Source of the DNA: an uncultured Trueperaceae bacterium
GTDB lineage: Bacteria; Deinococcota; Deinococci; Deinococcales; Trueperaceae
Assembly (NCBI GenBank): GCA_963815215.1
Contig: CAWFFU010000010.1
Coordinates: 295,863-359,862 of the forward strand
Direction: 5' to 3'
Length of the DNA stretch: 64,000 bases
A model generated the notes under the pieces. That model was not told the DNA's origin, searched no databases, and worked only from the letters and a program-made list of their open reading frames with translations. Below, in pieces: positions 6,719 to 64,000 of the stretch. Numbering within the stretch: the first letter of the stretch is position 1; every line of letters begins with the position of its first letter. The position numbers were made by a program, and so were the translations under genes.

Positions 6719-7405
<687 letters not shown>

Positions 7406-15102: not shown

Positions 15103-15106
<4 letters not shown>
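14564..15106 (-). CDS. ccmG: Thiol-disulfide oxidoreductase (CcmG/DsbE/TlpA)
   Basis: INFWASWCGPC and GVPETYFVD motifs; N-terminal membrane anchor. Confidence 0.88.
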
Positions 15107-17103
<1,997 letters not shown>

Positions 17104-31829: not shown

Positions 31830-31905
<76 letters not shown>

Positions 31906-31990: not shown

Positions 31991-33176
31991 TCAGTTGTCG
32001 GGTTGGGCCGATCCGAGGAGTTGATCCATGGACAGCGCTGCGGCGCGGTGCTGCTCCTCGTAGGTGTGCTGGTAGACCGATCGGGTGAACTTGACATCGG
32101 TGTGGCCCAGCCGTTCGGAGAGTACCTTGTCGTCGACGTGCTGGCTGAGGGCAAGAGAGGCATAGGTGTGGCGGAGGTCGTGGATCCTGATGACGGGAAC
32201 GTTGGCCTTCTTGCAGATGCGTTTCATGATCCGCTTGAGATTGTCCGGGTGGTAGGGGGTCCCGATCTCCGTTGCGATGACCACTCCCGACTCCGTCCAT
32301 GCCTCGGCCGCGAGCTTGCGATCCTCGTCCTGCTTCTGGCGGTGCTGACTGAGGACCTCGACAACGTCGGGCGACAGGTAGATCATCCGCCTGCTCGAGT
32401 CCGTCTTCGGCGGCGCGAACTCAAGCCCACCTCCTGGCCTGCTCCGCAGGGCTAGCTCGATCCTGAGGTAACCCTCGTCCAGGTCTACGGCATCCCACTT
32501 CAACCCGAAGACCTCCCCCCGTCGGAGGCCGAGGCTCAAGAGCAGGTAGAAGGCCGCGTAGAGCCGCTCGCCTTCGGCGGCCCGCAGAAAGCGAGCCGCC
32601 TGATCCGGGGTCCACATGGCCTTGGGGGTCTTCTTCTGCTTGTAGCGGAAACTGACGCCATCGACCGGGTTCCGCCGCAGCTGTTCCCGCCGGACGGCAT
32701 CAGCCAAGGGCCCCCGCGTCAGCCATAGGGCGTAGTGGATGGTCCGCTTGCTTAGCCCCTTCTCGCCGAGGGAGATCAACAGATCCTCGATATGGCTTGC
32801 GCGGATCCTGTCGATACGCATGTCTCCTAGGACGGGCACGATGTGGTCGTTGAGGAGTTGTGCGTAGGACTGGTAGGTCGTGCGCGCAACCCGCGGCTGC
32901 CTCACCTGTAGCCATCGTCCCGCAAGCCGTCCGAATGTGACCGCCTCGGAACCAATCAGCTCGCCCTTGCCGTGAAGGTAGAGCATCTCGTTGAGCAGCT
33001 TGCGGGCTTCGTCTTCGGACTTGGCGTACCTGTAGATCCGGCGGGGCTTGCCTTCAGGCGTGCGGCCGATGGTAAGTGCTGCCTGCCAGCGGCCATCTTT
33101 GCGTTGTGTGATTGAGCCCTCGTTGTTGTGGCGGCGGCGCCGCTCTTTCCTTCTGCTTCTTGCTGCGAGTTGCCAT
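31991..33176 (-). CDS. Tyrosine recombinase/integrase (one-base frameshift near 33150)
   Basis: GLRRGEV, HDLRHT, LGH and Y motifs; the frame extends upstream to RRRHNNEGSITQRKDGRWQA; ATG at 33176 with GGAGG RBS is one base out of frame. Confidence 0.92.
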
Positions 33177-33432
33177 CGCTTCCTCCAGACAGTGTTGCTA
33201 GCTCCGGGGTTGTTGCGGGCTTAGGGCTGTCCCCCTTTCAGTGGGATTCGCCTTGCCCGCTCCCCAGTCGGTGCTGTGGTGGAAGCAGTGACATCAATTC
33301 TAGCTGATGCAGGCGGTCATGGCAAGCAGAGATCGCGTCCTGGACGCATAAGACAGTCTTACCCCTGGGGTGGCGACTGCGAAGCGACAGCCCACCACGG
33401 CAACATCCCGATGTACCGAGGCGAGAGCCCGT

Positions 33433-33580
33433 ACAAGTGGACCCCGGATTCCGGACAGCCGGCTTAGGTGGGAAGCGGTAGTCTTCCGGGATGGGGAGCA
33501 GCGTGAAGAAGCAGCGTCGGAATCACTCTCCGCAGTTCAAGGCCAAGGTGGCTCTGGAGGCGGCGAAGGAGGAGCGCAAT
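33433..33580 (+). pseudogene. IS3-family left end and truncated transposase OrfA
   Basis: IR-like AAGTGGACCCCGGATTCCGGACA then KKQRRNHSPQFKAKVALEA, which breaks off after about 25 codons. Confidence 0.7.
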
Positions 33581-33791
33581 CCCGGTGAGCGCCTCGTCCC
33601 GCAAGACCAACTCACTCTTGCGCCCCATCCAGTCACTGATGTTCCCTTGGTCTTCGCTGCACTGGCCACGGCCATTTGAGAGTCACGCGACCGGTTCTTC
33701 TCGCAGACTTGCGACTGCCGCGATGCAGGACGTCTACGGGTGCGGGCCGAAGCGGTCACCTTGAACGCCCTCATGACAGGCGAGACATGTA

Positions 33792-34352
33792 TCAACGGGT
33801 GCCACCACGCGGTCGCGGTCCGAAGATGATGCTCGTCGTTGCAGGAGGCAGGGCTGAGACGGGTACCAGCCTCCCGATTACAAGAGGTGTATCGATAACA
33901 CCCGCGAGATCCCTGATTTCTGTGGAGAGCTTCTCGAATGAGGTTAGTACGGGCGCATCGTTCGGCGATACCACCTTCAGGAAGGCCGTATCTGCCGCCG
34001 CGATGATTGCGACGTCTGCGTGTTTCCCTGCCGTGACCTTCATCGCGTCCAAGATGTCTGATCCAAGGCTCATCTGGTGTCTGAACGTGAATCGGACCCA
34101 AGTGCGATCACGTACGTAGCGTCCTCCCTCGCCGTCCCACCCGGTGTCCAGGAAGCGCTGATCGATGACACGATTCAGATATGGTTGGATGCCCATCGGT
34201 GGTCGTTTGCCTTGCGCCAGCTTCTCGGTCCTTGCGGCTGCGTAGGCGAGTGCGGCCTCCTTCCACGAACCCTGGAGCGTCCCATCGAGCTGAGTATCTC
34301 CAACCGCGAGCTCTTGGTCGCACCATGGAGCACGGAAGAGCTCGACTTTCAC
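33792..34352 (-). CDS. Putative BglII/BstYI-fold restriction-endonuclease-like protein with atypical catalytic positions
   Basis: LNRVIDQRFLDTGW, DVAIIAA, SFEKL and PLVIGRL resemble the BglII scaffold; GTG start overlaps the upstream stop. Confidence 0.5.
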   Translation of the reverse strand: MKVELFRAPWCDQELAVGDTQLDGTLQGSWKEAALAYAAARTEKLAQGKRPPMGIQPYLNRVIDQRFLDTGWDGEGGRYVRDRTWVRFTFRHQMSLGSDILDAMKVTAGKHADVAIIAAADTAFLKVVSPNDAPVLTSFEKLSTEIRDLAGVIDTPLVIGRLVPVSALPPATTSIIFGPRPRGGTR

Positions 34353-37300
34353 GCCCTGGGCCCTCGGACAGGAATCGCTCCGACACGCTTGACAGCCAAT
34401 CTGGTCCCGTCTCTGCTCCAGATCGGGAGGGGCGGTGCCGCAACATCGCCGGGCATGGGCGCCGTCAACTCTGCAGGGTTCGGCCACCATCCGATGAGGG
34501 CAGAATGAATCGCAACGACTGGGTCACCTTCGCTGACCGAGACGAAGCCCGCGGCATCGAGGTCCAGGATCGTACCGAAGATGAGCGCGTCGAGCACCTC
34601 CGGGAGGCTGTCGGGCCTGAGAACGACGACCCCATCTCCAGAACCTGCGCAGCCGAGCAGGAGCGGTACGCCATCGGCCTCAACGATCATGAGGGGAGCA
34701 AGCTCACCGTCAGCTGAGTTTGCCGGTGGCAGCGATTCGAGGAGAGCTGAAGATCCACTGCGCCGCGAGAGTGAAACCGGTCCGTGCATCGACATCTGCC
34801 GACACCGCGACAGTGGTGCCCTTGCTGGCGAACCGGGTGGCGCCATCAACCCTCGCTACAACCCAACCAGCTCTTGCGGCGGTCCGCTCTAGCACACGGA
34901 GAAGGCGCGATCGGAAGTCGGACGTGCCTTGCCAACCGAGACGTTCCACGGGCGCGCGATTCCAGACCCTGGAGAGCGCTTTCAGCTGAGTCGACTTCCG
35001 GGCTTCCTGTAATTCTGCGAGGAGGTCTGACGTCGGGCGTCCAGCTCCAAGCGACCGTTCACTCACGGCGGCGCGGATTGCCTGGCTGACGAGCTCGGGG
35101 TAGGTGCCTACGGCCAGGTCCAGCAGCTCCTTGCGGGCCAAGAGGCGACCGTAGATTTCCCTCTCGATGCTCCCGGGATACCATAGGTTGACGATTCTGA
35201 CGGTCGGCTCCTTCTGGCCCACGCGAGCGATGCGCCCGATTCGTTGCTCGAGCTTGGCGGGGTTCCAGGGTACGTCGACGTTGATCAGGACGCTTGCTGC
35301 TTGAAGGTTCAGGCCCTCTGAAGCGGCGTCAGAGCAGAACACCACCCCAACAGCTCCTGCGTCCAGTGCATCGGTGACGTCCTTCTTCGAAGCTCTCCTC
35401 CGAGTGGTACCGTCGAATACCTCCACAAATCCTCCCGTGTAGGTTGCGAAGGGCACCATCGTCCCGAACGCGTCGCGGAACGATTCGATGAGTGACCGTA
35501 CCGTTGACGTGTACTTCGAGAAGACGAGGCAGCTGTGGCCCGCGTCGAGCCCACTACGCAGTTGTGCCATGGCCTCGATCATCTTGGGATCGATAGCCCG
35601 CGGTGTTGGCTCGAACTGCTCGAACATCTTCAGGATGGGACGGATGTACGAGAGCTCGACTTCGCAGGCTCTTCGAACGGCGTCCGTAGGACGTTCGGTG
35701 TCTTCATCCGACCAAGTGTCGACTGACTCGTCCTCATCATCGTCAGTCTCCTCATCGCTCCATGCCTCGCCTGCAAGCAGGGAGACCAAGCGGTCTGACC
35801 GCCGGCGGAGCGTATCGAAGGCGGATTGGAGGCTCGACGCGATCCGCTGTTGGTACGTCACTGTCAAGAACCCGACCGAGTTCGACCGGTCGCTCCACAT
35901 CGACCTCTCGACGGTGCCCAAGGCTTCACTCAGGTAGCGCTCGACCGCCCGCAACAGGGTCAGAACCTGATGTGGAGAGACGGGTTCGATGGAGTCGAAT
36001 GTGCGTTCCGGGAACGAGTATCCGATCCGTTCGAGTGCGCCGCGCGTATTGCGCAGTATCAACAGGGCTGCAGGGTGGAACCGCACAAGGCCCTCGAAGA
36101 CAGTCGGCCATGCCTGCCGGGCCGCCGTAGTTGCTCTGAGCCGCGCCCGAATTCCATCGCTTGCAGCGATGGCCTCGACAATGCGACCCACGTTATGGCG
36201 CCCCATGGCTCTCGGGGCGAACCAGGATCCTCGATGTCTCGAGGATGTCGACTGCATCGGATACCTCCTGCATGTCGGGATCGTCTTCGGTACCGCGACT
36301 CAGGAGGGTGAGGCTCCTCCTGTAAACGCCGTCAGTGAACTCCGACGGCAAGGACAGGAGTTCCAACATGTCGCGAAGTTCGCCTTCATCCATCTGCATC
36401 GGTGTCGCGGTGAGAAACAAGAGATGCGGAACCGACCGTGAGATATCGTGCATCATCTTCCGCAAGAGAGACTCAGAGCTCCCGGTCGGCCCACGGCGCT
36501 TCCGCGCTGCATGTGCTTCGTCCAGGACGACCATGTCTGGCAGCACGGTGGCGGTTCTGAACGCATGGCCCCGCCGCTTCGTGCCCCTCGCGAGATCCCT
36601 GGAGACGATCAATCGGCTCGGGTAATCACGCCCGAATGGTCCGTCCATCGCCCGACGGACCGCGCCTGATGCGGCAATGAACTCGCGCCGGTATGAATCG
36701 AACCGCCAGAAGTCCATCCCGAAGGAGTCGGTCAGCTCATCCTGCCACTGTCTCGCCAGTGAAGGTGGCACCAAGATGATGACTCGTTCGACACCAAGGA
36801 AGTTGACCGCGAACTTGACCACCGCTGCCGCCTCGTAGGTCTTCCCAAGCCCTACTTCGTCCGCCAGGAGTGCGCGCACTGGCCACCTGCTCGTTGCCTC
36901 GATCAGGACCCGTTCCTGATGAGGGAAGAGGGGTCGCTCACTCGAGTTCACGGCAGCCATGAGAGGGCTGTCACGCAGCAGCCTGACGACGTCGAGTGGT
37001 CGGGCCAGCCGTGGAGTAGAAGGTCTCCGAGGCGCACCCACCCCGAGTGCGGCCAGTAGCTCGTCGCCGAACGCCTGGTCAACCACCGCGACTTCGAGGC
37101 CATCGACATCACCGCTCCACACTTCCTCGAACTGCGCTAGATGTGCGGACGTGTAGGGGGCGCCCCCTGCCCAGGACATGTGCACCGTCACCTCTTCGTA
37201 GTTGCCGCCCAGCCCAGAGACCGTCTCATTCGGGCTACCGGAGGCCGAGACCACATCGCCGAACACGTCCGAGAAGATGAGGCGCTTGCTATGGAAGATC

Positions 37301-37715
37301 CTGGGAGCGCTTCGGTCCCCCCTACCACTCTGGCGCATCTGACCTCCAGCATCCCATCTCGCAGCATCCAGCCAACGGTCTCGATGCGGTCGCGTCGGAG
37401 CTCGTCTGTGAGGGTCGAGACGCCCTCCACGATGCGCTGTCGCAGGTTCGCGACGACCTCGTCTATCGCCGCTGCGCGCGTGGCCGCCACGAGTTCAGGG
37501 TCGAGTGCGTGGGCTCCTACGATGAGTCGCACGTGTCCACCGTTCGCCCGCAAGCCATCCAAGCCTTCGGCCACCGCCACCAGCGACCCGACGGTGAAGT
37601 AGCCGGCCAGACGGTCGTATCGACTCGAGTTGGAGAGCGCGGGCTGGAGAAGGTCGCGGGCGATCTCGCGCCCCGGCCCTGCATAGAAGATCCGAAGAGG
37701 GATGTCCCTAAGCAA
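34349..37715 (-). CDS. PLD (HKD) nuclease - SNF2 helicase fusion, split by frameshifts near 37298, 36228 and 34755
   Basis: YDRLAGYF N-domain, FHSKRLIFSD...SGSPNET HKD motif, LADEVGLGKT, LDEAH, LTATP, SEGLNLQ and WNPAKLEQRIGRIAR across four consecutive ORFs. Confidence 0.85.
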
Positions 37716-37717
37716 CG

Positions 37718-38371
37718 CTACCCGGGTTTCTCGGCGACGGCCGCGATGATACTCGCGCAGATCTCATCGTCCCCGTCTGGCGAAGGCACGGCGACAACGC
37801 CTCGGTCGACCAACTGACGCAATAGGCCCAGAGCGTACGTTGCCTGCCGAGGTGTGAGCGGCCGGCCGCCTTTCCGTCTCGTCGCGAAGCTCTTGAGTGC
37901 AGAGACGTTCTTTGGTGCCTTCCTGCCTGATCGGGGCCAAACCCCGTATTGGTCGGCCTTCTTCGCCGCGACGTGGAATGCCTCGGCGCCAAGGACGGTC
38001 ACGCGCTCCGCTGGGGAGATCCCGACGAGTTCGCGCAGGACCGTACGCACGGACTCGAACGCGGTACTCCGGGGACGGTCCTTGAGCCCATCCAGTGCCT
38101 TCGTGATCTCCTCTGTTGGCACCTGAGATAGCAGCATCCACGTGGTGGTCGGTGGATCGGCCTCAGAAATCAGGTTCAGGCTGTCGTCCTCAAGGGTGTC
38201 TAGCCTGATCGCGGACTCGAACTCCGCTTGGGTCGCAGCCACCGTATCCGCGGCCGCTTCCACGGTGAGGCCGCTCTCATGGAAGGCCTGTCCTACGCTT
38301 CGCACCCAGTCCCCGAGGGGCTGACGGGGAGCAGCCCAGGTCCTCTCGAGCGCACCGCTTTCGTCAGTCAT
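37718..38371 (-). CDS. Hypothetical helical protein, second gene of the GHKL operon
   Basis: Start overlaps the GHKL stop (ATGA) and its stop abuts the helicase start; protein-like composition. Confidence 0.7.
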   Translation of the reverse strand: MTDESGALERTWAAPRQPLGDWVRSVGQAFHESGLTVEAAADTVAATQAEFESAIRLDTLEDDSLNLISEADPPTTTWMLLSQVPTEEITKALDGLKDRPRSTAFESVRTVLRELVGISPAERVTVLGAEAFHVAAKKADQYGVWPRSGRKAPKNVSALKSFATRRKGGRPLTPRQATYALGLLRQLVDRGVVAVPSPDGDDEICASIIAAVAEKPG

Positions 38372-39894
38372 GCCGTGGCACCTCGACGCGAGTCATCAGC
38401 CCCCTGCTCCGTGACGCCGCCAGCGACAGGCCTGAATTCGCCTGTCAGCGCATCGTGCAACCATTCGTCCCGTACCCTCCGTGCCCGCCGAGAATCGATG
38501 CCCTCGTACTCCTGGAGCACCCGCGCGATGCAGTCTGCGATTGCGAGGCAGCCAAGGAACTCCTCGTCGGAGGTCTTCTCGAATGCAACCGCGTTCGCGT
38601 TGAGCATCACCACCATCTCGAGTGAGCTAGCGTCGTACACGTAATCCCAAGGAAGTAGTTCGTTGTCCAGGCTCTCGACCGTGCAGTCAACCGTCACTGA
38701 GCCCCTGGGCAATGAGATGATATTGCGCCGGGCCGCCAGGCGTGTGGCGGTGGTTGGCGCCACCGATTCCCCTTGCGAATCGTCGTCTGACGCGTTCGAT
38801 GGGGGCGGAGCGTCCGAGTCGCTCCCGTCTTCTCCTCCTGCTCCGTTGCCTAGAACGCTCCTCATCCGGGAGAGTGCACGATGGACCCTTGACGTGTCGT
38901 CGCGTCCGCGACTCATCGATCTCGAGGCCTCGACGGCTGGCCGCAACAGTGCCTTCATCGTCGCCACCGCGAGTCTCCACTCTTCACGAGACGTTTCGAA
39001 CCCTCTCTTGTTGAAGTTGACGGGAACGAAATCGAGATGGGCCTCGCCCATGATCCTGGAAGTCATGAGGTGAGCAGCGAAGAACGACTTGTTCCAGGAC
39101 TCGATGAGCTGTCCCTCTCGATACAGATTGATGCCGTAGTCACCCCGGTTGTGTGTCTGCGAGTCCAGACCGAACCAACCCGACACCCGCCACGTCTGGC
39201 CCTCGACGACGAGCTCATCGAACTCGTGTCGCGACCCCTCGATGAGGTTGTACGGCGCTGGTGATGCCTCCGTCCCGTTGACGAAGATGCGGTCCTTCTG
39301 GGTGGTGATGTGGGGGCTGTAGGCTCGGCCAAGGAAGTCAAGGATGGCACCGGCCATGATCTCCTTGTCACGCAGACTCGTCACCCAGATAGCAGTGCCC
39401 TGCGGCCTGTCCACGAGAGGGCCGCTTCTATCAGGCTCGTCCTCTACGATTTCGATCGACCAGTCGTGCGAGGCGCTCGCACCCCGTCGCCCGAAATCTT
39501 CAAGGTCGAACGTGACTCGATACTCGACGCCATCCTGGTTCTCCGGTCGTGTCACGATTCCCCACCGTCTACCCAGGCTCGCGGCCGCAGTCTTCATACC
39601 AAGGCCGTAGGTACCCATCCTCGCCGTCTTCCGGCCGGTGATGATGTCCATGTCTATGCCGAGACGCACCGCCTCCTGCAAGATGTCGAGAGTCATCCCC
39701 GATGCATCATCCGCGATAGTCAGTTCGCCGTCGTCCAGCGTTACGTCCACGCGGACCGGTGCGTCTGCCACCCTTGCATCGAGGCTGTTCGCTACCAGCT
39801 CGGCCACGGCTTCCGGGGGCTTCAGGGCGGTTGCCCCGATGGTCTGCATTAGTCGTGGTGACGGCACGTTATCGAATCGATGCGTCTTGGGCAT
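38368..39894 (-). CDS. GHKL (MORC/MutL-like, HATPase_c_3) ATPase
   Basis: AVAELVANSLDA, IADDASGM, GTYGLGMKTAAASLG and GT motifs followed by an S5-like region; AGGAG RBS. Confidence 0.85.
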   Translation of the reverse strand: MPKTHRFDNVPSPRLMQTIGATALKPPEAVAELVANSLDARVADAPVRVDVTLDDGELTIADDASGMTLDILQEAVRLGIDMDIITGRKTARMGTYGLGMKTAAASLGRRWGIVTRPENQDGVEYRVTFDLEDFGRRGASASHDWSIEIVEDEPDRSGPLVDRPQGTAIWVTSLRDKEIMAGAILDFLGRAYSPHITTQKDRIFVNGTEASPAPYNLIEGSRHEFDELVVEGQTWRVSGWFGLDSQTHNRGDYGINLYREGQLIESWNKSFFAAHLMTSRIMGEAHLDFVPVNFNKRGFETSREEWRLAVATMKALLRPAVEASRSMSRGRDDTSRVHRALSRMRSVLGNGAGGEDGSDSDAPPPSNASDDDSQGESVAPTTATRLAARRNIISLPRGSVTVDCTVESLDNELLPWDYVYDASSLEMVVMLNANAVAFEKTSDEEFLGCLAIADCIARVLQEYEGIDSRRARRVRDEWLHDALTGEFRPVAGGVTEQGADDSRRGATA

Positions 39895-40118
39895 TCGCTA
39901 CTCCTAGCTCCCAGTCTGCGATAGGGCTCCGAGGCCAGATTCCATCGTGGCCCTGCTAGTCCCCTGTGTGCAGCATCCTCCTGCGACAGCACGACGCCCC
40001 ACGGATCCCGCCTGGAACTCACATGCTGCTCTCAGGATAGCCCACGATTTCGACCTCTCTGCGCTGGAATCTTCACCCCCGAGAGGAACGGAAGACGGCA
40101 AGGTGTTGCGATGATCAA

Positions 40119-40784
40119 TTGAAACCACCAGAGAAGCGCGACCACATCGTTCGACAGCGCGCCCTACGCTTGAACGGCTACTTCCTCGACGAGGCTTTGT
40201 GGGATGAGGAGTGGATTCAGATCAGAGGCCGGGAGCTCCTCCAACAGGCACTGAAGATCTGGGCTCGACCCCAAGAGGAGGCTGGTCAGCATCAGCAGGC
40301 CGCGGATGTCGAACTCGCCCTTGAGATCGAGACTGAGCCTGAACCCGTGACAGCCAAACAGCTCCTTCCGGCTGCCCTGTCCGCCTTTGAGAAGGCCGCC
40401 CCCAACGGCTTGAAGTTGGTTGGGCGGGGGAAGACCTACCGTCAAGTGCGAGTGGAAGGCTGGCCCGCAGACCTCCACTACGAGTTCTCGGCGCACGACG
40501 AGGTCTTCGGCGTTGACCTGCATGTGGAGCTGGCGGAGGGCCATCCGCTTAGGGACCGCCTGGTTAAGCAACTCGACTCGTTGCTCCCAGTCGTTCGCCA
40601 AGGCTTCCCGGGGTTCGAAGGGAAGCGTCTCAACAAGCGGACCTGGCGGTGGCCCCGAGTGGAGATTCCCGTCGGCGCGGTGCCTGGTGAGCAACTGGGG
40701 GCAGGAATGCTGCGGCTTATCGACCTCACGAAGTCAAGGATGGACGGTGTCGTGAGGGCCGCCGCGAACCAAGCAGCTGACTAG
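40119..40784 (+). pseudogene. 3' remnant of a GmrSD/DUF1524-like protein with an extra C-terminal domain
   Basis: LRLNGYF...WDEEWIQIRGRELLQQALKIWARP resembles the end of DUF1524-type proteins; no N-terminal part or good start. Confidence 0.55.
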
Positions 40785-42829: not shown

Positions 42830-44356
42830 TGGGAGGCGTGTCTTCCGAGATCACGGCGCTCCGCAAGAGCGGGAGAACGAACGAGGCCTTAGAGATGGCG
42901 CGCGCGCTGGCCGTGAACGGTAACGTCTCACACGCCGAGCGGATGGCCCACGCCTGGGCGGTCTGGCAGGCGCTCAAGGAAGCCGTCCGGCGGCTGCCTA
43001 ACATCGGGACCGGGAAGCCTTCCGGCGTCTTGCACATCCGTAGGCTCCTGAAGGAGTACGCGGACCTGGATCCGCCGAGAGATGACCTGTGCAATCGGCA
43101 GGTCTTGACCGTACTCCTGAAGGTTGCCCAGGACCTCGACGGGTTCGTCAAGTTCGTCCGATGGTGGGGATCCGCAAGTCGCCCTCGATGCGGACTCCTA
43201 TGCCCCGTTCGTAACGAGCGATGGGAAGACGGTCCCGAGCTTCGCGGAGCGCGTCCAGTCGGCAGTCAGCAAGCACGTTCTCACCCACGCCACGCCCCCG
43301 CGCCGGGAAGACTTGGAGTTCGCACTGTCCTTGACGGAACTTGTCGGGAAACGGACCAAGGGGAAAGGTCGGTTCATCCCCTACTACCGGGGTCGCCTGC
43401 TCGTGGAGTTGGGCGATGTTGACGGTGGCATCGCGAGCCTGCGGAGGTTCACTGGCTCGAACGTCAAGGAGTGGTGGGCATGGCGGACGCTCGCGGAGGC
43501 GTTGTTGGGGAAGGACGCGGATGCGGCCCACAAGGCGGCTGCGAGGGCGGTCGTCCTGTGCCCCGAGGATTTCAAGAGATTGGCGCTCGGCCTATTGGAG
43601 CGAAGCGCTCAGGCCGCCAGGACCGAACTTCCCGATGGGGACGGCCTGCGCGCACTGGCTTCGTCCGCGAGCGAGATACTCTTCGGCGAGCTGCCGTGGG
43701 AACGCGGAGTTGCTGTGCTTCCGTTGCAAAGGAAAGGGCGACGCGACCTAGCCCGGTTCGCTGTCCAACGCGGCGATGAGTGGGTATCGGTCGTGGCGCC
43801 GGGTCTAGAAGAATGCGTGGCCTTCGGAACCGAGGTGGAGCTTAGGGTTGTTCCATCGGGGCGTGGGCCGAAGGCGGTTGCGGTGAGGTTGGCCGAGGTG
43901 GTTGAGGTCGGAAGCGATCAGGGTTTGCCCTGGCGGGTAGGCGTTGTGACTGCCGTCGACGCGGCCCGAGGAACGGTGCAGGTTCAGTACGCGCTGGACG
44001 GCAAGGGCTGGGTGCCTGCGCCAGAAGGGTTCACCCATGACGTAGGCGATGCGGTACGCGTCGTTGTGTCAAGCACGGACCGTGGCCGGGCAGTGGTCGG
44101 GATCGACGAAGCAGTGGCTTGGGAGTACGCAGCAGGAGGTGTGGGGGTCATCCGTACAGAAGGCCCGTTGGAGGTGACTTCCGCCGGCTTCGGTTTCGTC
44201 GACGCCCCCGAGGACCGGGTGTTCGTCCCACCCGATCTCGTTCCGGCGCCGGTGCCGTCCGAGGTGCAGGTTGTGGCGGTGCGCGCGATCGATCGGAAGC
44301 GGGGCGTACCCGGATGGCGAGCGATCGCGTTACACCCGAAGGCAGTGGCGCCATGA
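42829..44356 (+). CDS. TPR + S1/cold-shock-like OB protein (DUF7017/TOTE-like), frameshift near 43169
   Basis: ITALRKSGRTNEA, GKTVPSFAER, PYYRGRLL and KEWWAWRTLAE, then C-terminal GFGFV...VFVPPDLV...RKRGVPGWRAI. Confidence 0.65.
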
Positions 44357-45324
44357 GCTCGCCTACCGAAGCAGTGCCGCTAGAGGATCGCTTGTTCGTT
44401 GCCGGACGCCGGAGATCTGCGTGGCGGCCGCTGCCTCCCTTCGCCAAGGCGGCCACCGCCCTAGGGAGGGAGCTTTGGTCAGGAGCCGTGGCCGGCCAAA
44501 CGAACCTGATCGTACTCGTTGTCCCACAGCGGTCGTTCGTCGCTTGGTTCATCTGTCTCGGCGCGCTCGACGCCTCCCTCAGTGCGTCGGTCGACACCGT
44601 CCCGCAGGAAGTGGAGGTCGGTTCGGGGGTCAAGGTCGTCTTCGAAGGTGGTGTCTATGACGGTGTGTACCTCGGGCTTCACGAGCGAGTCGTGCTGGGG
44701 GAGCACAAGCGCTACCACGATGTGCAGGTGAGGGGGAGCGGCAAGATGATGTTCCCAGAGGGGCAGGCGGAGCTGATCACCGTTTCTCAAGCCGGTGACG
44801 GACCGCGGCTGGGGAGCTTCCGGCCCGCGACGCCCTCCGATCAACTGGCCTTCGCCGCCGCGGCGCTGGGGTTGAAGGACCCCGTACGGTTCGAGGCTGA
44901 GACGGAGGAGGTCGCTGCAGTGATCGGGGTCCGCTCCGCGCTCAGCAGCGAACTGGGGTATGCGGAGCTTTCTGTGAAGGACGGCCCTAACAGACTCAGT
45001 GGATCGCTCAACGACCTCCTTCGTGTTCGCGGGCCGCATTCGACAAGCGGGTGGCGCGTCGACCTACAGACATCGCTCGGCGACGGCGCACCCGGGGGCG
45101 ATGCCCGCCTGCTGGTCATGGATGGCGCGCTTGCGGTCCTACGGCGGGGCTTGGACTTCGACGTGAGGAACCTCGTCGTGCTTGTCGACCCCGTGGACCC
45201 CAGCACGCCGCTTGCCCTGAGTGAGTTGGAGCAACGCGCCGCACTCTCCGAACAGCTCCAGTTGCCCGAGGCCCTTTCGCACCCCGGGTTCGGCGATATC
45301 GAAAGAGCTTGGTTGCGGACATGA
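44353..45324 (+). CDS. Hypothetical protein, possibly N-terminal half of a DrmE-like protein
   Basis: ATGA-coupled on both sides; degenerate alpha/beta fold features (LLVMDG, VVLVD). Confidence 0.6.
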   Translation: MSSPTEAVPLEDRLFVAGRRRSAWRPLPPFAKAATALGRELWSGAVAGQTNLIVLVVPQRSFVAWFICLGALDASLSASVDTVPQEVEVGSGVKVVFEGGVYDGVYLGLHERVVLGEHKRYHDVQVRGSGKMMFPEGQAELITVSQAGDGPRLGSFRPATPSDQLAFAAAALGLKDPVRFEAETEEVAAVIGVRSALSSELGYAELSVKDGPNRLSGSLNDLLRVRGPHSTSGWRVDLQTSLGDGAPGGDARLLVMDGALAVLRRGLDFDVRNLVVLVDPVDPSTPLALSELEQRAALSEQLQLPEALSHPGFGDIERAWLRT

Positions 45325-46871
45325 CCGTGCTCCAGGCCTCGCTGGAGGGGACCGCGCGAGCATGGGATATCGCTCGGACAGCCTCACACGAGATCATCGA
45401 AGTGCCGTACCCGCTGTTGGATGTGGTCAAGGACCGCTTGGTTCGACTACTGAAGCTGCACCCGGACAGAGGCTCCGTCTCCTACGAGGTCCTCGCCGTT
45501 CTGCGACGGTATCGGTTCCGGTCGAACGTGGTGCCGGCTGCTCCCGGCTCCCCGTTGCTCTGGGGTTCAGAGACCGTCACACTGGCACTACCGCAATTGG
45601 CGAACCTTGCCGCCGAGGGTATCGGAGAGAGTGGTGCCTGGGCGGAGCTTCTAGACGCTGTCACCGACCTCCGATCGCAGAATGGGGCTTCACCTATGTG
45701 GGCTGAGCTACTGAACCGTTGGCCCACGGTGCCGCGCCCGGCTGCTCTCGTGGTGCAGCGTCACCGCGATGTCGCGGTGGTGGAGGCGCTTGCCTCCAGC
45801 CTCCCTGGGAATCCGGTGGTGGTGGCGCCCCCCGAGCTCGCGCACACATGGGACCGCGAGGTGCTAGTGGTGTTCGGTCCACCCAGGGCATACCCAGATT
45901 GGGTGTTCAACGTGCCGCGCGGTGACACCTTGTGGCTTCGGTACTCCTCCGCTAGTGACCGTCCGCCATCCCCCTCCTACCTCTCGTTCTCGGAACGAGG
46001 TCGAGACCGCACGCAGAGGACCGTCTTGTACGCCGGTCACGCGCCAGGAATCGCGCGTCCAACGGATGACCTGCCGGACGACATCGAGGACATCCTCAGG
46101 CCCACGCTCGATTGGGGGAAGGTCGCGAGGGTCAAGCAGAGCCGGCTCTCCCTTTCGGAGGAGGATGCCGAGGACGTCGTTCCGGCCATGGCGGTGATCT
46201 TCGATGGCGACGTCCCTGTCTTCCTTTCAGCCGAGCCTGGTGCTAGCGTTACGGTTCTGGACGTTGATTCTGCTGACGTGACGCACGAGAAGACCGATCG
46301 ATTGCGGCCTGGCATGTACGTCGTGCTGCGGACCCAGGGTGGCGGGGACTTCGTTCGAGAGGTCGCCGACAGGTTGCTTGGGGAGCGGGCGCGACCGCTG
46401 AGAGAGGACATCGAAGGCTGGAAACGTGACCTGCGGGCTCGACTGCGGCAGATCGGAACGCAGCCGTTCACGGACCAACTGCGGGAACAGGGCGTCGAAG
46501 TAGATCCGCAGACGGTGCGATCGTGGTCCAGGGATCACGTTATGGCACCGGGTTCCCTACAGCGGTTCAGGAGCGTGATGGTGGCGCTCGGTCGGACGGA
46601 TGTCGAAGAACGATGGGTGGTGATCGGCCGGGTGCGCGCTGCCCATCGTAGCGCCGGTCACCGTGTGCGCCAGATGCTGCTGGCTGAAGTGCGGAAGACG
46701 GACATCTCCGAGTTGCGCCGCTCGGCACGGATTGCATTCAGCTTGGAGGGTGAGCAGGGGGGGACGCTCACGGCCTTCCGGATCGAGGAGATTCCTGGGG
46801 TGTCGTTGGAAGTCCCAAGATCGCTTCTGAACCATTGGGATGAAGGAGAGGAGTCACCGTGGCCCGCATGA
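45321..46871 (+). CDS. DrmE-like protein (C-terminal half)
   Basis: VIFDG...LRPGMYVVLR...DFVREVAD...WKRDL...TVRSW...RAAHRSAG pattern and position upstream of drmA/drmB. Confidence 0.55.
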   Translation: MTVLQASLEGTARAWDIARTASHEIIEVPYPLLDVVKDRLVRLLKLHPDRGSVSYEVLAVLRRYRFRSNVVPAAPGSPLLWGSETVTLALPQLANLAAEGIGESGAWAELLDAVTDLRSQNGASPMWAELLNRWPTVPRPAALVVQRHRDVAVVEALASSLPGNPVVVAPPELAHTWDREVLVVFGPPRAYPDWVFNVPRGDTLWLRYSSASDRPPSPSYLSFSERGRDRTQRTVLYAGHAPGIARPTDDLPDDIEDILRPTLDWGKVARVKQSRLSLSEEDAEDVVPAMAVIFDGDVPVFLSAEPGASVTVLDVDSADVTHEKTDRLRPGMYVVLRTQGGGDFVREVADRLLGERARPLREDIEGWKRDLRARLRQIGTQPFTDQLREQGVEVDPQTVRSWSRDHVMAPGSLQRFRSVMVALGRTDVEERWVVIGRVRAAHRSAGHRVRQMLLAEVRKTDISELRRSARIAFSLEGEQGGTLTAFRIEEIPGVSLEVPRSLLNHWDEGEESPWPA

Positions 46872-48602
46872 TTCCACCGGTGTTCGACGAGACCATCACG
46901 GTCTCGCCCGGTGAGCGGAAGTTGTTCCGGATGTTGGAGTTGAGCCCCGAAACGGAAGGCTGGGTGGTGTTGCATTCCCAGCGCATCGCCCGCCCGAAGA
47001 GCAAGGAGCGGGGCGAGGCGGACTTCGTGGTGATGATCCCAGGCCTGGGCGTACTGGTTCTAGAGGTCAAGGCACATCACCACATCGCACGAAGGGAGGG
47101 TCGGTGGCTGTTCGGCGGTGACGCCAGTCCGGGTAAGGACCCGTTCGTCCAGGCGGAGGTCGCGATGCGCGCGCTGAAGGGCTCGGTCGACAAGGGCTTA
47201 CAGGGAAGTGGGCGCAGGGTCTTGTTCGCGGACGCGGTGGTGTTCACGCACGTCGACCAGATTCCGTCGGTTGATGAGTGGAAACAGCGTCAAGTCATCG
47301 ACGCGCGGTCTGTGACAGCAGAGAAGCTCGCTTCGGCGTTGAGACGGAGCCTGGAGTCAGCCGCGAGTGAACTCCGTCATACACACGGGTTGACCGGGTG
47401 GACGTTCGATGATGACGACATCGAGGGTGTGCTGCGGGTGTTGCGCCCGGAGTTCGATGTGACGTTGTCGCCAGCTGGCCGCCGAGCGCAGCTGCAGGAC
47501 GACCTGATTCGCTTCACCAACGAGCAGTTCGGGGCGCTCGACGCTACGAGCCTGAACCACCGTGTCGTGTTCGAAGGTCCGGCGGGGACGGGCAAGACGC
47601 TTCTGGCCGTCGAGGCAGCGAAACGGGCATTGGATGCCGGCCGTCGCGTCCTGTTGACGTGTCACAACGCTGCGCTCGCGGACCACCTGAAGTCCGTGCT
47701 ATCGGACCGGCTGGCGTCGGGCCGATTGACGGTCGGGACCCTGCACCGCGTCCTGATGTCTTTGACCGGGTCCGAGCCGCCCGAGCACGACGAACAGGCT
47801 TTCTTCGGCCGCGAGCTTCCGGAGGCCGCGCTAGAGGTGCTCCTCGAGGCAAGGGAGGATGCGGCCGCTCGAGGGTTCCTCTTCGATACGGTGATCGTCG
47901 ACGAACTACAGGATTTGGCCCAGGAGCCGTTCCTGGTCCTTTTCCCTGAGTTCCTGACTTCGGAGGATGGGACGCTCTTCGCCTTCGGCGACCTCGATAA
48001 CCAGGCGATCTTCCAGCACGAGGATGCTGAAATCCTTCGGGAGCGGATCTACGATTGCCTCGGGAAACCGGCTGGGTACAGGTTGCTCACGAACTGCCGC
48101 AACACACCACGGGTCGTGAGTTGGGTCACCGGGCTGGTAGACGTAACCCCTGCGTACAGCGGGATCCGGCGGCCGGATGACGGGGCCGATCCTGAGCTCG
48201 TGGTGGTGCCGGAGGAGGACCAGCCTGCGCAGCTCGTGAAGGTTCTCGATTCCCTGCTCGCAAGCGGCTACCGGGCCGAGGAAGATCGTGGTCTTGTCCG
48301 TAGTGAGTGACCAACACAGCCTCGCCCGGCGTGTCGAGGCGCCCAACTGGCGGAACCGCCTCCGACCGCTTGCGAGAGCCTCAACGGGGGTCGTCGGGTA
48401 CACCAGTGTCTACCGGTTCAAAGGCCTCGAGAGCCGCGTGGTCGTTCTCACCGATGTGGCCGGCATCGATGGCGAGAATCGGGAGGCTCTATACGTGGGA
48501 CTGACCCGCGCAGTTGAAACGATCGTGATCATGACATCGCCTGCTGTGGTGCCTTTCATGCTCGCCAGGCTGCGTCGGGCCCACGCTGGGGTCGCTGCAT
48601 GA
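46859..48602 (+). CDS. NERD nuclease - superfamily 1 helicase fusion (frameshift near 48285)
   Basis: GE..LF, VLHS, EADFVV...VLEVK; GPAGTGKT, IVDELQD, NCRN, then RFKGLE and LYVGLTRA in the next frame. Confidence 0.88.
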
Positions 48603-52123: not shown

Positions 52124-53975
52124 TGTTCAGCCAAGACAGCATCAGGAGGGGCCACCTGATTTACGGCGCAGGGGTGGGGGGCCTGACGGTCCTCAAGAAC
52201 GGTACATCGGTCATCTGCGCAGGACTCGACTATTGGTTCAAAGACCGAGATGGCCGCGTGAGCGACACGGTTAACTCCAACGAGCTCGACGAGTGGCGCT
52301 TGAAGGCTCGCTTGCGAGTGCGCTCCCTCCGGCAGCCTCCAGCCCCAACCGAGACCATCGGCAACGAGTCCAAGGGGCCGGCGAACAGTGTCGTCGTTCC
52401 GTTCCTGCGATTCCCGCAGTGGCACGTCTGCCCCCGCTGCAGGAGCCTGGAGTTCGTTCAGGAGCCGGAGCGCCGATGCCGCCGAGTGCTCGCGCTGCAG
52501 GGCCAAGAACAAACACAAGAGCTTCCTGATCCAGGTTCCAATCGTGACGGCTTGTAAGGCGGGACACCTCGACGAGTTCCCCTGGCAGGCGTGGATCGGA
52601 TGTCAGTGCGAAACGCCCCGGATGACGTTGAAGCAGAGCGGTGGCGCGGGGCTAGCCAACTTCAAGGTGCGATGCGATTCCTGCGGGAAGGTCAAGGGGC
52701 TGCGGGGAGCCCTTGGCGAGGACAGCCTCGGCGTTTGCCATGGTGAACGCCCCTGGCTCCTGGGAGCTGAGCAGGAGGCATGTGATGAGTCGCTACAGGG
52801 TGTCCTCCGGAATTCGTCGAACACGTACTTCCCCGATGTGGTGTCGTCCGTGTACGTCCCCCCGGACGCTTCCGGCGCCCCGCCGAAACTCGTCGAGCAC
52901 CTGATGAGCGAAGACTTCTCGATGACGCTAGGAATTCTGAGGCAGCTGCCTGAGCCACAGCGTCTCGAAACCCTGATCCAGTACGGTGACGGGTTCGTCC
53001 GGGACCACTCGCGGGAACAAGTCGATGCGGCGATGAAGCTGGTGCTTGCGGACCGTGAGGTGGCGTCGGTCGCTGCCTCCAGCGAGGTCGATTACCGCCA
53101 ACGCGAGTACGACATCCTGAGGTCGACGGTGGTACACGAGCGGCTCCGAGTTCGTGTCGCCCCGAGCGAGAACTACGAAGCCGCTGTCCGCACCTCAGGC
53201 ATCGCAGCCATCTCCTTGGTCGACCAGCTCGTGGTGACGAAGGCACTCGCTGGCTTCAGCAGGGTGCTCCCCAGAGCGTACAGCGGAGGCGACGAGGGCG
53301 CCCGGCTGCTCTGGAAAGAACTACCTCAACGCAAGCATCGATGGCTCCCAGCTGTCCAGGTCCGGGGCGAGGGCATCCTCATCACCTTGGAAGAGAGCCG
53401 TCTGCATGCTTGGGAAGCGCGCGACAGCGTTCGGACCCGCTACGCGACCGTGATCGGCAGCGCGGAGGAGGCTCGCTTCGCACCCCACCAGATCGCGGAG
53501 TTCTCACCGCGCCTGTTCCTACTCCACACGCTTTCGCATCTGGTCGATCAACCGACTCGTGTTCCACGCCGGCTACTCGGCCGCATCCCTCGCGGAGCGC
53601 ATCTACTGCCGTCAACCGGGCGGTGACGTCGCACCGATGGCGGGTGTACTGATCTACACGGCGGCCGGTGATGCGGACGGAACGCTCGGCGGGCTCGTCA
53701 GGCTCGGAGAGCCGGCGGTTCTGGAAGGAGTGCTCCGAGATGCGGTGGATACGGCCAGGTGGTGCAGCAACGATCCCGTATGCATGGAGGTCGGCAGGCA
53801 GGGACCGGACGGCTTGAATTTGGCCGCGTGCCACGCCTGTGCGCATGTTCCAGAGACGGCTTGTGAGGCCTTCAACGTCATGATGGACCGAGGCGCCGTG
53901 GTGGGAACCCTAGAAGACCCCACACTCGGCTTCTTCTCAGGCACGCCGCTGCTGGAGGGTGTGAAGCATGCATGA
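52123..53975 (+). CDS. DISARM DrmB-like DUF1998 protein (frameshifts near 52470 and 53546)
   Basis: CKAGHLDEFPW, LLHTLSHL, YSAASLAERIY, GTLGGL, CSNDPVC and ACHACAHVPETACE. Confidence 0.88.
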
Positions 53976-54718
53976 TCGGCGGACAGGTGCGGGACCATCG
54001 CGGTCGTGAGCGTGTCGCGTTCCTCAGGCGAACCCTCGTGCGGGAGGGGCGAACCCACGATGGTACCTACCCCTGGCATCGCACCACGAACCCGTACCTC
54101 ATCCTCATCGCTGAGCTCCTGCTGAAGAGGACCAAGAGGGTCGTCGTTGCTCGCGTCTTCGACGTGTTCGCCGGAGCGTACCCTACGGCCGCAGACCTCG
54201 CCGCAGCTGACCCCGATGCGCTCTACGAGCGTATCCGACCGGTCGGATTGGCGCGCCGCACGAAGCGCTTGCCGCAAGTCGGCGCAGCTATCGTCGCTAA
54301 CGGGGGAGTACCCTCGGATCGGATTGCGCTGCTCCGATTCCCTGAGGTGGGAGCCTACGTTGCGGATGCCACCCGTCTCTACGCGTTCTCCGAGCCGTGC
54401 TTCCCTTTGGACCGGAACGCCCAGCGCGTCCTACGCCGTTCCATCGACGGGTGCCATCCCGATCGAACGGTGGACCCTTACGAGGATGCCCACGTGGTCG
54501 AGGCGGTGGTCAACCTGACCGCCGGCGCGTCGGTCGGAAAGGTGCGGGCGTTGCACCAAGGTCTCCTCTCCGTGGCTTGGAGTCACTGCGGTCCGCGTCC
54601 GCGGTGCTCCGGTTGTCCGCTACGTTCGGCTTGCTGGTGGGCGCTGGAGTCCAGTGCAGCCCACGAGGCCGGTGATGGGCCGGACGAAGGATCAACCAAC
54701 GTGGAGGGGGGCCCATGA
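53972..54718 (+). CDS. HhH-GPD DNA glycosylase, Mig (T:G mismatch)-like, with Fe-S cluster motif
   Basis: YPW..TTNPYLILIAELLLKRT, HhH LLRFPEVGAY, LDRN and C-terminal CGPRPRCSGCPLRSAC. Confidence 0.8.
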   Translation: MIGGQVRDHRGRERVAFLRRTLVREGRTHDGTYPWHRTTNPYLILIAELLLKRTKRVVVARVFDVFAGAYPTAADLAAADPDALYERIRPVGLARRTKRLPQVGAAIVANGGVPSDRIALLRFPEVGAYVADATRLYAFSEPCFPLDRNAQRVLRRSIDGCHPDRTVDPYEDAHVVEAVVNLTAGASVGKVRALHQGLLSVAWSHCGPRPRCSGCPLRSACWWALESSAAHEAGDGPDEGSTNVEGGP

Positions 54719-56125
54719 CCAACCTCCCGTACAATCCGAGCGACGCGACCGACATCCTCCGCTATGCGCGCAGGCTCGATCGGGCGCACGCTCCGACAGG
54801 TCCTTGGGGACGAGGTTGCCAACCATGGCATCGCCGGCAAGGGTAGGTTCGGCCAGGTTCTCGAGACGCGCTACTTCCGGTACCCGCTGAACTCCGAGAG
54901 TCGCCCGGACTTCGCTGACGCAGGGCTGGAGCTAAAAGCCACAGGCTTGGTGCCTGATGGCCACGGAAGTTGGAAAGCCAAGGAGAGGGTGAAGCTCAAC
55001 GCCATCAACTTCCACGAGGTGAGCAGCGAGGATTTCTGGTCGAGCACCTTCCTCCGGAAGAACCTCAGCATCCTGCTTATCTGCTACGCGTACGAGAAGG
55101 GTCAGTTGGCGGTCGACAACATGGTGGAGCTCGTGGACAACTGGCGGATTCCCGAGCAGGACCTCATCCAGATCGAACGTGAGTGGAACCTCATCGTCGA
55201 TCTAGTCCGCGAAGGCCGAGCTCACGAGCTTTCCGAGAGCCTGACGAACTACATCGGTGCTTGCACCACCGGCCAAGGTGGGGGTCGCGATCTCCAGGAG
55301 CAGCCGTGCTCGGATGTGCTCGCGAAGAGGAGGGCGTTCTCCTTCAAGCAACCCTACGTTACGCGCATCGTCAGGGAGTTCGTCGCACGGGAGGACCGTC
55401 GTCGCGCGAAGGTGCGTGGGGGATCGTTGGTCACGAGTCTCGACGAGTTGCGGGAAGCGGGATCGATCGAACATCTGGCCCTCCGCAGGTTCGAACCGCA
55501 CCTCGGCAGGACCGAAGCTGACATCACGAGGGAATTCGGCATACGGGTCCCGCACAGCAAGAACCGGCGGGAGACTCTGAACTTGGCCATCCTGGGTGTA
55601 CGGGGCACGAGGAGGGTCGACGAGTTCGACAAGGCAGGCATCACCATGCGCTCGTTCACATTGCGGATGGGCACTCGGCTCCCCAAGGAAGACTTCCCAC
55701 TCCCGGCGTTCGAGTTCTCCGACCTGAGCGATGAACGATGGGGGACGTCAGCGCTGCGAACGCACCTGCTGAATCGCTTCCTGACCGTCTTCTACATGCT
55801 CGACGGAACCGGCACCTACACCCTGAAGGATGCCGTGTTCTGGGCGTTCCCCGAGTCCGAGCTCGACGGAGCAGTCCGCGAGACCTGGGTGAGGACGGTT
55901 CGGCTGGTCCGTCAAGGGCGCATCGATGGGCTCCCGAAAGCGGCGGACACGCACCTTGTGTTCCTCCGGACCCACGGGCGGGACAGCAGGGACACATCAC
56001 GCTTGCCGGACGGGAGAGCGTTCCCCAGAGTATCGTTCTGGCTCTACCGGGCCTACCTGAAGCGGGTGTTCGAAGATGTAGGCACATACCCAATCCGGGC
56101 GAGCGCGATCCAAGGCGCCAGGTAG
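54715..56125 (+). CDS. Sau3AI/MutH-family restriction endonuclease (frameshift near 54778)
   Basis: KGRFGQVLE, NSESRPDF...GLELKAT, AHELSESLTNYIGACT and RAFSFK, plus a second MutH-like domain; ATG at 54715 overlaps the upstream stop. Confidence 0.88.
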
Positions 56126-56136
56126 AATGACCACCT

Positions 56137-57438: not shown

Positions 57439-57448
57439 AGAGACTTGC

Positions 57449-58372: not shown

Positions 58373-58516
58373 GCGGCCGCCGCCTTCGTGCCGAAGATCG
58401 AAGAGGCTTGTTGATCGTATGGCTCCGTTTCGGCTGCGCTGCTACTGCACAGCGGCCCGCTGGAGGTACGGCGTACCATGCGGCGTACACGTTGCCGGTG
58501 GAGATGGGGGCGCGGG

Positions 58517-62500: not shown

Positions 62501-62533
62501 ACCGTAGGGGGGCGGTGTGACAGTTCGTGTCAC
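62501..62533 (-). promoter_or_regulatory. Putative WYL operator/promoter: GTGACA-N5-TGTCAC palindrome, N10, then TACGGT -10 box
   Basis: Minus strand reads GTGACAcgaacTGTCAC-accgcccccc-TACGGT just upstream of the glycosylase RBS. Confidence 0.6.
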
Positions 62534-63972: not shown

Positions 63973-64000
63973 GGTTAAGCGCCGGCTCTCGCTCTTCACC

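Follow-up and report, generated by a model that had tools for sequence, protein, structure and literature searches.

What do four tightly packed genes encoding a GHKL ATPase, a small helical protein, a nuclease-helicase and a protein with a restriction-enzyme fold do together, and how could such a set tell foreign DNA from that of its host? The question is raised by a locus in an uncultured Trueperaceae bacterium, in which the genes (here g1 to g4, in order of transcription) occupy positions 33792-39894 on the minus strand of a stretch of 64,000 nucleotides of contig CAWFFU010000010.1 (assembly GCA_963815215.1); this whole stretch was analysed and is referred to below as the window. Comparison with related loci shows that the cassette is tightly linked to one family of C5 cytosine DNA methylases, often together with a Sau3AI-family endonuclease. 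A DNA-targeting defence role tied to this methylase is highly probable. The account as a whole, namely that of a conserved, horizontally mobile, restriction-like cassette around a MORC-family ATPase, including a stepwise mechanism and the state of this particular copy, is one that we favour with some reserve.

The first-pass annotation had described four translationally coupled genes on the minus strand, and their order and junctions are borne out. The stop codon of g1 overlaps the start codon of g2 in an ATGA at 38368-38371, the TAG stop of g2 (37718-37720) is followed 2 nt later by the TTG start of g3 at 37715, and the GTGA at 34349-34352 contains both a TGA (34349-34351) and the overlapping GTG start of g4 (34350-34352). 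In the given sequence, however, g3 does not form one open reading frame (ORF), and its coupling to g4 holds only in the frame of the last piece of g3. The domain calls hold, with HATPase_c_3 in g1, SNF2, ResIII, Helicase_C and the PADLOC models PbeA and PLD_Helicase in the pieces of g3, and the BstYI/BglII/BamHI fold in g4. Scans of 33300-40400 gave no promoter-like site and one terminator-like site, which lies inside g1, neither count being above the level of shuffled sequence.

The unit co-occurs elsewhere, as a synteny search demonstrated. A search with g1 yielded 103 protein clusters of full-length relatives, mostly metagenomic, with the few named ones being haloarchaeal proteins labelled “ATP-binding” or “hypothetical”. 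In a scan of one genome per species 46 loci were obtained, 25 of which (L002-L026) carry the full family and the rest the N-terminal GHKL part only; three of the 25 are cut by contig ends, and the counts given here refer to the other 22. The genes g1, g2 and g3 are found in the same order and on the same strand in all 22 loci, with g4 coming next in 16 of them. This order is far beyond chance, since it has been kept in every one of the related loci, and the four genes have been inherited together in archaea as well as in bacteria. In 21 loci g3 is a single ORF of 1075-1156 aa; in the remaining one, a Bacteroidales metagenome-assembled genome (MAG; L015, 10093-13321), it is split between two ORFs, of 697 aa and 337 aa.

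Archaeal carriers comprise Halobacteria, Methanomassiliicoccus and a Thermoplasmatota MAG, and the bacterial ones come from at least four phyla, including Actinomycetota (among them Coriobacteriia), Bacillota (Sarcina, Butyrivibrio, Blautia, Sharpea), Bacteroidales and a Thermoguttaceae MAG. Intact cassettes are present in the cultured Sarcina sp. DSM 11001, Butyrivibrio sp. AE3009, Blautia celeris, Blautia hominis and Sharpea porci. A Haladaptatus plasmid bears a three-gene form whose products carry no more than the labels ATP-binding, hypothetical and helicase-related; on this plasmid (L063, 14890-19446) a DEAD/DEAH helicase and a DUF1998 protein, which resemble a DrmA/DrmB pair, come after the three genes. 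McrBC-like genes, an AAA_5 ATPase and then a DUF2357 plus PDDEXK_7 protein, lie directly after the cassette in Sarcina (L006, 12235-15657) and in Blautia (L010, 13977-17427).

In the present host the cassette was acquired horizontally. This follows from three observations: a search of 40 relatives (9 from the genus of the host, 15 from its family and 16 from its order) yielded no member of the g2 family, the G+C content of ~71% up to ~31 kb of the window drops to ~63% onward, with the change falling at a tRNA-Ala(GGC) gene, and this tRNA gene together with a tyrosine integrase flanks the region.

How the host DNA would be spared is suggested by the neighbourhood. It had been noted that the four genes have no methylase of their own, and none lies inside 33792-39894; for the system the statement is misleading, as 21 of the 22 cassette genomes encode a C5 methylase of one and the same family. 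It is found in the fetched flanks of 17 loci, often directly upstream of g1 and on the same strand, and elsewhere in the genome for four of the remaining five. In Butyrivibrio (L008) it lies just outside the fetched locus, beginning 158 nt beyond its end and with a Sau3AI-like gene as neighbour, and in L004 it lies ~10 kb upstream (assuming that C1 is the cassette contig). The link recurs across phyla and in several arrangements, with the methylase either downstream or upstream and, in the latter case, on the same or the opposite strand. The cassette-linked methylases are 37-88% identical in pairwise comparisons and make up one family; that of the window shares 55-58% identity with those of L011, L013, L014, L019 and L020 and 41-49% with the other five of the ten compared. 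As a control, of the 40 relatives that lack the cassette only one matches the methylase family over its full length, five others matching the generic N-terminal half only. A Sau3AI/MutH-like endonuclease stands beside the methylase in the fetched flanks of 13 of the 22 loci, and all 17 loci with a methylase in the flanks carry g4, the Sau3AI-like gene, or both. The window itself contains such a restriction-modification (R-M) pair at 54719-57438, of which the endonuclease and the methylase both exceed their NCBIfam cut-offs (Table 1), and the window methylase is the probable self-marking partner of the cassette.

Several observations weigh against a tie to the methylase. In L003 and L012 the methylase is on other contigs than the cassette, no methylase is among the listed genes of the haloarchaeal plasmid copy, and a search of the Haloarchaeobius genome (L002) at E <= 1e-10 brought up no member of the methylase family. 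The locus counts also overstate independence because the loci are phylogenetically clumped, eight of them being from Bacteroidales.

The Haloarchaeobius genome would suit a different explanation, in which the cassette works in the manner of SauUSI, as a type IV-like enzyme that depends on modification and attacks phage DNA with modified cytosines, and the methylase belongs only to the Sau3AI-type system. The build of g3, a phospholipase D (PLD) nuclease with a superfamily 2 (SF2) motor, is that of SauUSI and MtsD, and the McrBC-like genes that follow the cassette in L006 and L010 fit this explanation. So does the cassette of Butyrivibrio sp. AE3009 (L008), which is flanked by an SRA-domain protein and an AspBHI-like/Mrr-type endonuclease (6787-7857, 14002-15207) as well as by a Sau3AI-type pair; SRA-domain and AspBHI-like enzymes depend on 5-methylcytosine (m5C). 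We nevertheless consider this explanation quite unlikely. An m5C-dependent nuclease beside a C5 methylase would be toxic to its own host unless its target differed, and the same-family methylase occurs in 21 of 22 cassette genomes as against one of the 40 control relatives. Moreover, no SRA domain or SauUSI-type target-recognition domain was detected in four intact g3 homologues (Pfam, E <= 0.05), and the nearest folds of g4 are enzymes of unmodified sites.

If the cassette instead acts with the methylase as a restriction-like system, the properties of its four products should allow for it. Judged by its sequence, g1 is a MORC-family GHKL ATPase. It matches HATPase_c_3 of Pfam with 56.9 bits (cut-off 25; 3e-15), and Morc6_S5 with 22 bits, which is under the cut-off of 26.2; PF17942 is among the precomputed annotations of many homologues. 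The residues E32, N36, D39, D62, G66, G97 and G99 are invariant among 24 homologues, and so is Lys296. In a PDB profile search the nearest solved structures are MORC3 (1.3e-18) and MORC4 (1.6e-16), each in two matched stretches, with topoisomerase VI-B (1e-6) and MutL (4e-5) far behind.

The second protein, g2, has no match in Pfam, PADLOC or NCBIfam, and its family counts 184 representatives among a library of 1.84 billion. Its AF2 model (pLDDT 93.9) consists of 13 helices, and residues 1-117 resemble a ParB-type DNA-binding domain, with VIA Z scores of 9.0 for ParB (6s6h), 7.4 for Spo0J and 6.2 for KorB, values that are not decisive for helical proteins. Foldseek returned nothing at E <= 0.001, the ParB-type matches having probabilities of 0.93-1.0 but E values of 0.4-1. 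The predicted complex between g1 and g2 stands clear of its controls: it scores 0.61, the best control reaching 0.18. Of 157 solved complexes 116 attained that mark, as did 2 of 215 mismatched pairs. At least 79% of the contacts agree between runs, and the pLDDT of the partners is at least 82. The predicted interface joins residues 399-430 of g1 with residues 36-53, 74-80 and 101-109 of g2 and takes in the conserved g2 residues E50, P73, P74, T76 and W78. The model thus supports binding of g2, as an adaptor, to the C-terminal domain of g1 (about residues 399-462), which is predicted to form the g2-binding surface. Binding of DNA by g2 is doubtful, because its ParB-like helix-turn-helix region is the very surface that is predicted to touch g1.

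Sequence searches with g4 remained without a match in Pfam at E <= 0.1, and a profile search of PDB brought up nothing beyond a ribosomal protein that matches by chance (E 0.76), with no alignment to BstYI/BglII-type enzymes. The AF2 model (pLDDT 88, pTM 0.84), by contrast, places g4 in the BstYI/BglII/BamHI/OkrAI structural family: Foldseek finds BglII with E 2e-5 and a probability of 1.0, and VIA Z scores are 14.7 for BstYI (rmsd 2.7 over 143 residues), 13.4 for BglII, 12.4 for BamHI and 12.0 for OkrAI (overall 11.2-14.7), with the next unrelated chain at 4.4. Over 142-161 aligned residues the identity to these enzymes is 9-18%. The g4 family comprises 542 clusters, and among those listed 10 of 120 carry PF09195, the BglII model. 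The catalytic residues of BglII are D84, E93 and Q95. Two of these positions we take, by position only, to be matched by N60 and the acidic residue 75 of g4, and the third is occupied by an invariant Thr84, so that by the same positional comparison a second catalytic acid seems to be replaced.

The third protein, g3, combines one PLD/HKD domain with a motor of SNF2-rel_dom and Helicase_C and a poorly conserved C-terminal part, as judged from its intact homologues. The HxK(x)4D...GSxN motif is present in the window copy and conserved in 18 homologues; the Pfam domain PLDc_2 reaches 29.3 bits in the homologue from L006 (cut-off 27) and stays below that threshold in three others. Among PDB entries RapA matches best (6e-31), and for the C-terminal 168 residues the ESM Atlas gives a weak lead to RapA_C (score 0.93, in 34% of one cluster). 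With only a single HKD motif, g3 would have to pair to form one PLD active site.

These features can be combined into a tentative sequence of events. The methylase would mark the host DNA, probably at the C of GATC; Sau3AI cuts GATC, and the methylase partnered with it places m5C there. Detection of unmethylated sites on incoming DNA would fall to g4 and/or the Sau3AI-like enzyme. The recognition sites of BstYI, BglII, BamHI and OkrAI all have GATC at their core, and if this applies to g4 as a relative in fold, it would be well placed to read the methylation state of GATC; where g4 is missing, the Sau3AI-like enzyme could read the sites instead. A dimer of the MORC protein g1, carrying g2 on its C-terminal domain, would then close on the unmarked DNA in an ATP-dependent manner and recruit or license g3, which may pair, translocate by its SNF2 motor and cut the foreign DNA. 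That reader, clamp and nuclease act in this specific sequence is something to which we would give slightly less than an even chance. More doubtful still is the particular version in which a catalytically degenerate BstYI/BglII-like g4 reads the methylation of GATC-core sites and a MORC clamp, via its g2 adaptor, licenses the HKD-SNF2 nuclease.

Another arrangement would dispense with site reading by the cassette altogether. The cassette would then amplify the Sau3AI-like enzyme in the style of MutL, MutH and UvrD, with g1 activating that enzyme at unmethylated GATC and loading g3 at the cut for processive destruction of the DNA. The Sau3AI/MutH-family gene in 13 of the 22 loci and in the window is consistent with this, g1 is a relative of MutL, and the analogy to MutL-MutH-UvrD has been drawn for MORC operons in PMC2292703. 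Five methylase-bearing loci (L005, L013, L019, L020, L022) speak against it, as they lack a Sau3AI-like gene in the fetched flanks and all have g4; the archaeal three-gene forms show neither g4 nor a Sau3AI-like gene. We therefore regard amplification of the Sau3AI-like enzyme as unlikely.

In the restriction-like reading the cassette has a precedent. Operons of MORC or paraMORC proteins with a superfamily II (SFII) helicase and a cytosine methylase were predicted to be R-M systems in 2008 by Iyer, Abhiman and Aravind (PMC2292703), according to the accessible passages of that paper, and a preprint of October 2026 still terms the role of prokaryotic MORC operons “proposed”. The likeness lies in the MORC ATPase with its GHKL and probable S5 domains beside an SFII helicase with a nuclease, in the cytosine methylase nearby and in the restriction-like role proposed. 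The forms that those passages describe have a Rad25-like helicase with a restriction endonuclease (RE) domain or, rarely, an HKD domain, a SWI2/SNF2 helicase with an HNH or EcoRII-like domain, or a third helicase with a new RE-fold protein. The set of an HKD-SNF2 protein, a ParB-like small protein, a BglII-fold protein and a Sau3AI-type pair is not met in them, and the full neighbourhood lists of the paper may contain it. Within the same bounds the cassette fits the predicted kind, as a variant with a new gene set. The earlier remark that the four-gene combination is not a recognised one is accordingly right in that it is uncatalogued in PADLOC v2.0.0 and NCBIfam and goes too far in that its kind had been predicted. 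No PADLOC v2.0.0 system is matched: g2 and g4 are without a model, g1 has a faint N-terminal match to MzaB and g3 has generic PLD-helicase matches. None of the cassette proteins reaches the NCBIfam cut-off of a catalogued system, and a literature search, which did not cover subscription journals, found no description of this cassette.

The likeness of g3 to effectors of other defence systems is broad, since it resembles the “phospholipase D-like” anti-phage protein of NCBIfam, DrmD, PbeA and HmaA and is under every curated cut-off. Its homologues match NF042964 (“phospholipase D-like domain-containing anti-phage protein”) over nearly the whole length with 313.5 and 320.5 bits, the cut-off being 1100. 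This model and the PADLOC model PLD_Helicase presumably stand for MtsD, the effector of MANTIS (formerly Gao_RL / GAO_29; 10.64898/2026.09.23.753747). As far as the accessible part of that report goes, MANTIS, the characterised system nearest in logic to the cassette, likewise unites an ATPase, a small co-regulator, a methylase and, after DNA recognition, a dimeric PLD-SF2 effector; MtsD acts downstream of a methylase-containing recognition complex, and its pairing into one PLD active site is shown there and compared with BfiI and SauUSI. In contrast to MANTIS, the cassette has a MORC GHKL instead of an AAA+ ATPase (MtsA) and a C5 cytosine instead of an adenine methylase (MtsC). In addition, g2 and g4 are without a counterpart there, g2 having no PADLOC match to the co-regulator MtsB.

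Three further relationships concern single components. PbeABCD (CxC-ABC-ATPase-DndE; PMC10853773) includes, in the part of the source available, the HKD endoDNase PbeA fused to an SF2 helicase and a small partner protein, with cytosine methylases in some cases. The g3 of L006 matches PADLOC PbeA with 181 bits over model positions 2-396 of 672, i.e. the first half only, whereas the CxC ABC ATPase and DndE are absent from the cassette and a MORC ATPase is in that place; g1, g2 and g4 gave no match to PbeB, PbeC or PbeD at E <= 0.1. SauUSI also couples a PLD nuclease to an SF2 motor and acts as a dimer, but it is an autonomous single protein with a methylcytosine recognition domain, while g3 has no such Pfam domain and always occurs with g1 and g2. 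The BstYI, BglII, BamHI and OkrAI endonucleases share their fold with g4, which is never alone and forms the last gene of the cassette. Three catalogued systems were considered and rejected: DISARM (DrmD at 206.7 bits, cut-off 610, and no DrmA, DrmB or DrmC in the cassette), Mza (MzaB at 37.8 bits, cut-off 850, over the N-terminal 90 residues only) and Hma (g3 matches HmaA as a generic SNF2 protein, and g1 has no HmaC match).

The cassette would add a MORC-driven member to the methylation-guided defences, which include R-M, BREX, DISARM and MANTIS, and it would test the recruitment of a restriction-enzyme fold as a methylation reader. The eukaryotic MORCs, which cooperate with DNA methylation in silencing, are thought to descend from prokaryotic MORC ATPases, whose own mode of action is so far a proposal. 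If g4 is a reader and g1 a clamp, the cassette would be the first worked example of bacterial MORCs sensing an epigenetic mark and a direct forerunner of the alliance that MORC, DDM1/LSH-type SNF2 proteins and DNA methylation form in eukaryotes. It is compact, with four small-to-medium genes and one identifiable methylase family, and is intact in cultured strains. Its value lies in the family rather than in the window copy, which may be broken or mis-assembled and has its methylase 16 kb away.

The state of this copy depends on g3. Alignment of its fragments and tblastn of intact homologues divide it into four pieces: A from 37715 to ~37320, B from ~37320 to ~36200, C from ~36200 to ~34750 and D from ~34750 to 34349. 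A and C are in one frame, B is offset and D is in a third frame. The three interruptions of the frame mean either an assembly error or a polymorphism at these places, or else a recent inactivation of this copy. One break can be judged directly. A metagenome contig of 295 nt (run X3, record 16, one of four runs) is identical to the window over 34600-34895 with no other letters and one gap, at 34750, and when this one base is dropped, the frames of pieces C and D join, as the ORF coordinates show. Break 3 is thus absent from an otherwise identical contig. The other two breaks are not covered by any metagenome contig from the four runs, the depth being 0 in the bins 37287-37497 and 36232-36442.

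Assembly error or population polymorphism is the origin of the breaks to which we incline. Of 158 testable columns without variation among 18 intact homologues, the window copy keeps 146; for comparison, intact homologues lose 0-11 of 159-170 invariant columns when each is left out in turn. Within the pieces there is neither an in-frame stop nor a lost catalytic motif, and g1, g2 and g4 are intact. Recent inactivation, with three genuine frameshifts in g3 and a decaying island that leaves the copy a dead remnant, is all the same a distinct possibility. It would account for three frame changes within 3.4 kb and for a second frame-broken gene of the island, whose NERD, UvrD N-terminal and AAA_19 domains are encoded in 46844-48310 (+) and whose UvrD_C_2 domain (3e-8) is read in a different frame at 48240-48602. 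Indels are not a general problem of the assembly, since rpoB, rpoC and uvrA are each one open frame without stops, and a broken g3 is also seen in L015.

Table 1. Coordinates of the cassette, its predicted motifs and associated features; positions are those of the window.
Feature	Position	Strand	Description or basis
g1	38368..39894	-	Predicted MORC-family GHKL ATPase, 508 aa, intact
g1 GHKL motif I (E32, N36, D39)	39775-39801	-	Sequence
g1 motif II (DDASGM)	39694-39711	-	Sequence
g1 G-loop (YGLGMKTA)	39586-39609	-	Sequence
g1 Lys296 of the probable S5 domain	within 38998-39018	-	Sequence
g2	37718..38371	-	217-aa protein, predicted all-helical, intact
g2 conserved PPxTTW motif	38138-38155	-	Sequence
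g3	34349..37715	-	Predicted HKD (PLD) nuclease fused to SNF2/RapA-like helicase, ~1120 codons, three frames
g3 HKD motif	37273-37296	-	FHSKRLIFSD; GSPNET at 37222-37239
g3 Walker A (GLGKT)	36838-36852	-	Sequence
g3 DEAH	36511-36522	-	Sequence
g3 TATP	36400-36411	-	Sequence
g3 motif VI	35214-35246	-	Sequence
g3 frame break 1	37303-37325	-	Within a six-G run or directly behind it, with “...ARVVG” before and the HKD motif after
g3 frame break 2	36193-36232	-	Reading returns to the frame of piece A
g3 frame break 3	34735-34765	-	One-letter difference at 34750 relative to metagenome contig
g4	33792..34352	-	186-aa protein with predicted BstYI/BglII/BamHI fold, intact
g4 conserved block TFRHQMSLGSD	34056-34088	-	Homologue conservation
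g4 conserved block SPNDA	33954-33968	-	Homologue conservation
g4 conserved block SFEKL	33927-33941	-	Homologue conservation
C5 cytosine DNA methylase	56131-57438	+	PF00145 9.5e-58; TIGR00675 222 bits, cut-off 100.65; 16 kb from g1
Sau3AI-family (MutH-like) type II endonuclease	54719-56125	+	NCBIfam NF040973 342.1 bits, cut-off 300; PDB 4pxg Sau3AI 1.1e-49
tRNA-Ala(GGC)	31830-31905	+	Left island boundary
Tyrosine integrase	31991-33220	-	Left island boundary, next after tRNA-Ala

The cassette is part of a defence island. To the right of the integrase the island holds the four-gene cassette, a TOTE-like protein, a DrmE_C-like protein, the NERD-UvrD helicase and a DEAD helicase, and it also holds an HhH-GPD glycosylase, the Sau3AI-family endonuclease, the C5 methylase, an ADP-ribosylglycohydrolase, an endonuclease/exonuclease/phosphatase (EEP) family nuclease/phosphatase and a WYL regulator. 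The cassette is at the integrase end, with ~15 kb of other defence genes between it and the pair of methylase and endonuclease. No repeat of the 3' part of tRNA-Ala was found elsewhere within the 64-kb window, and therefore the right end of the island lies beyond position 64000 or is degenerate.

Some of the other genes of the island deserve brief mention. A protein resembling those of TOTE conflict systems (S1CSD-TOTE-2, DUF7017, tetratricopeptide repeat (TPR)) and then a DrmE_C-like protein are encoded at 43121-46871 (+), where the ORFs 43121-44356, 44041-45324 and 45225-46871 overlap and may conceal additional frame changes. The gene immediately preceding those of the Sau3AI-like endonuclease and the C5 methylase, at 53867-54718 (+), encodes a DNA glycosylase of the HhH-GPD superfamily (6.5e-9); it may serve the repair of T:G mismatches after deamination of m5C, as a Vsr-like part. 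Further defence modules are possibly represented by the ADP-ribosylglycohydrolase (1.4e-77) and the endonuclease/exonuclease/phosphatase-family protein that follows it, at 57401-59644 (+), and by the WYL-WCX regulator at 62530-63522 (-), which may be part of such modules in the island.

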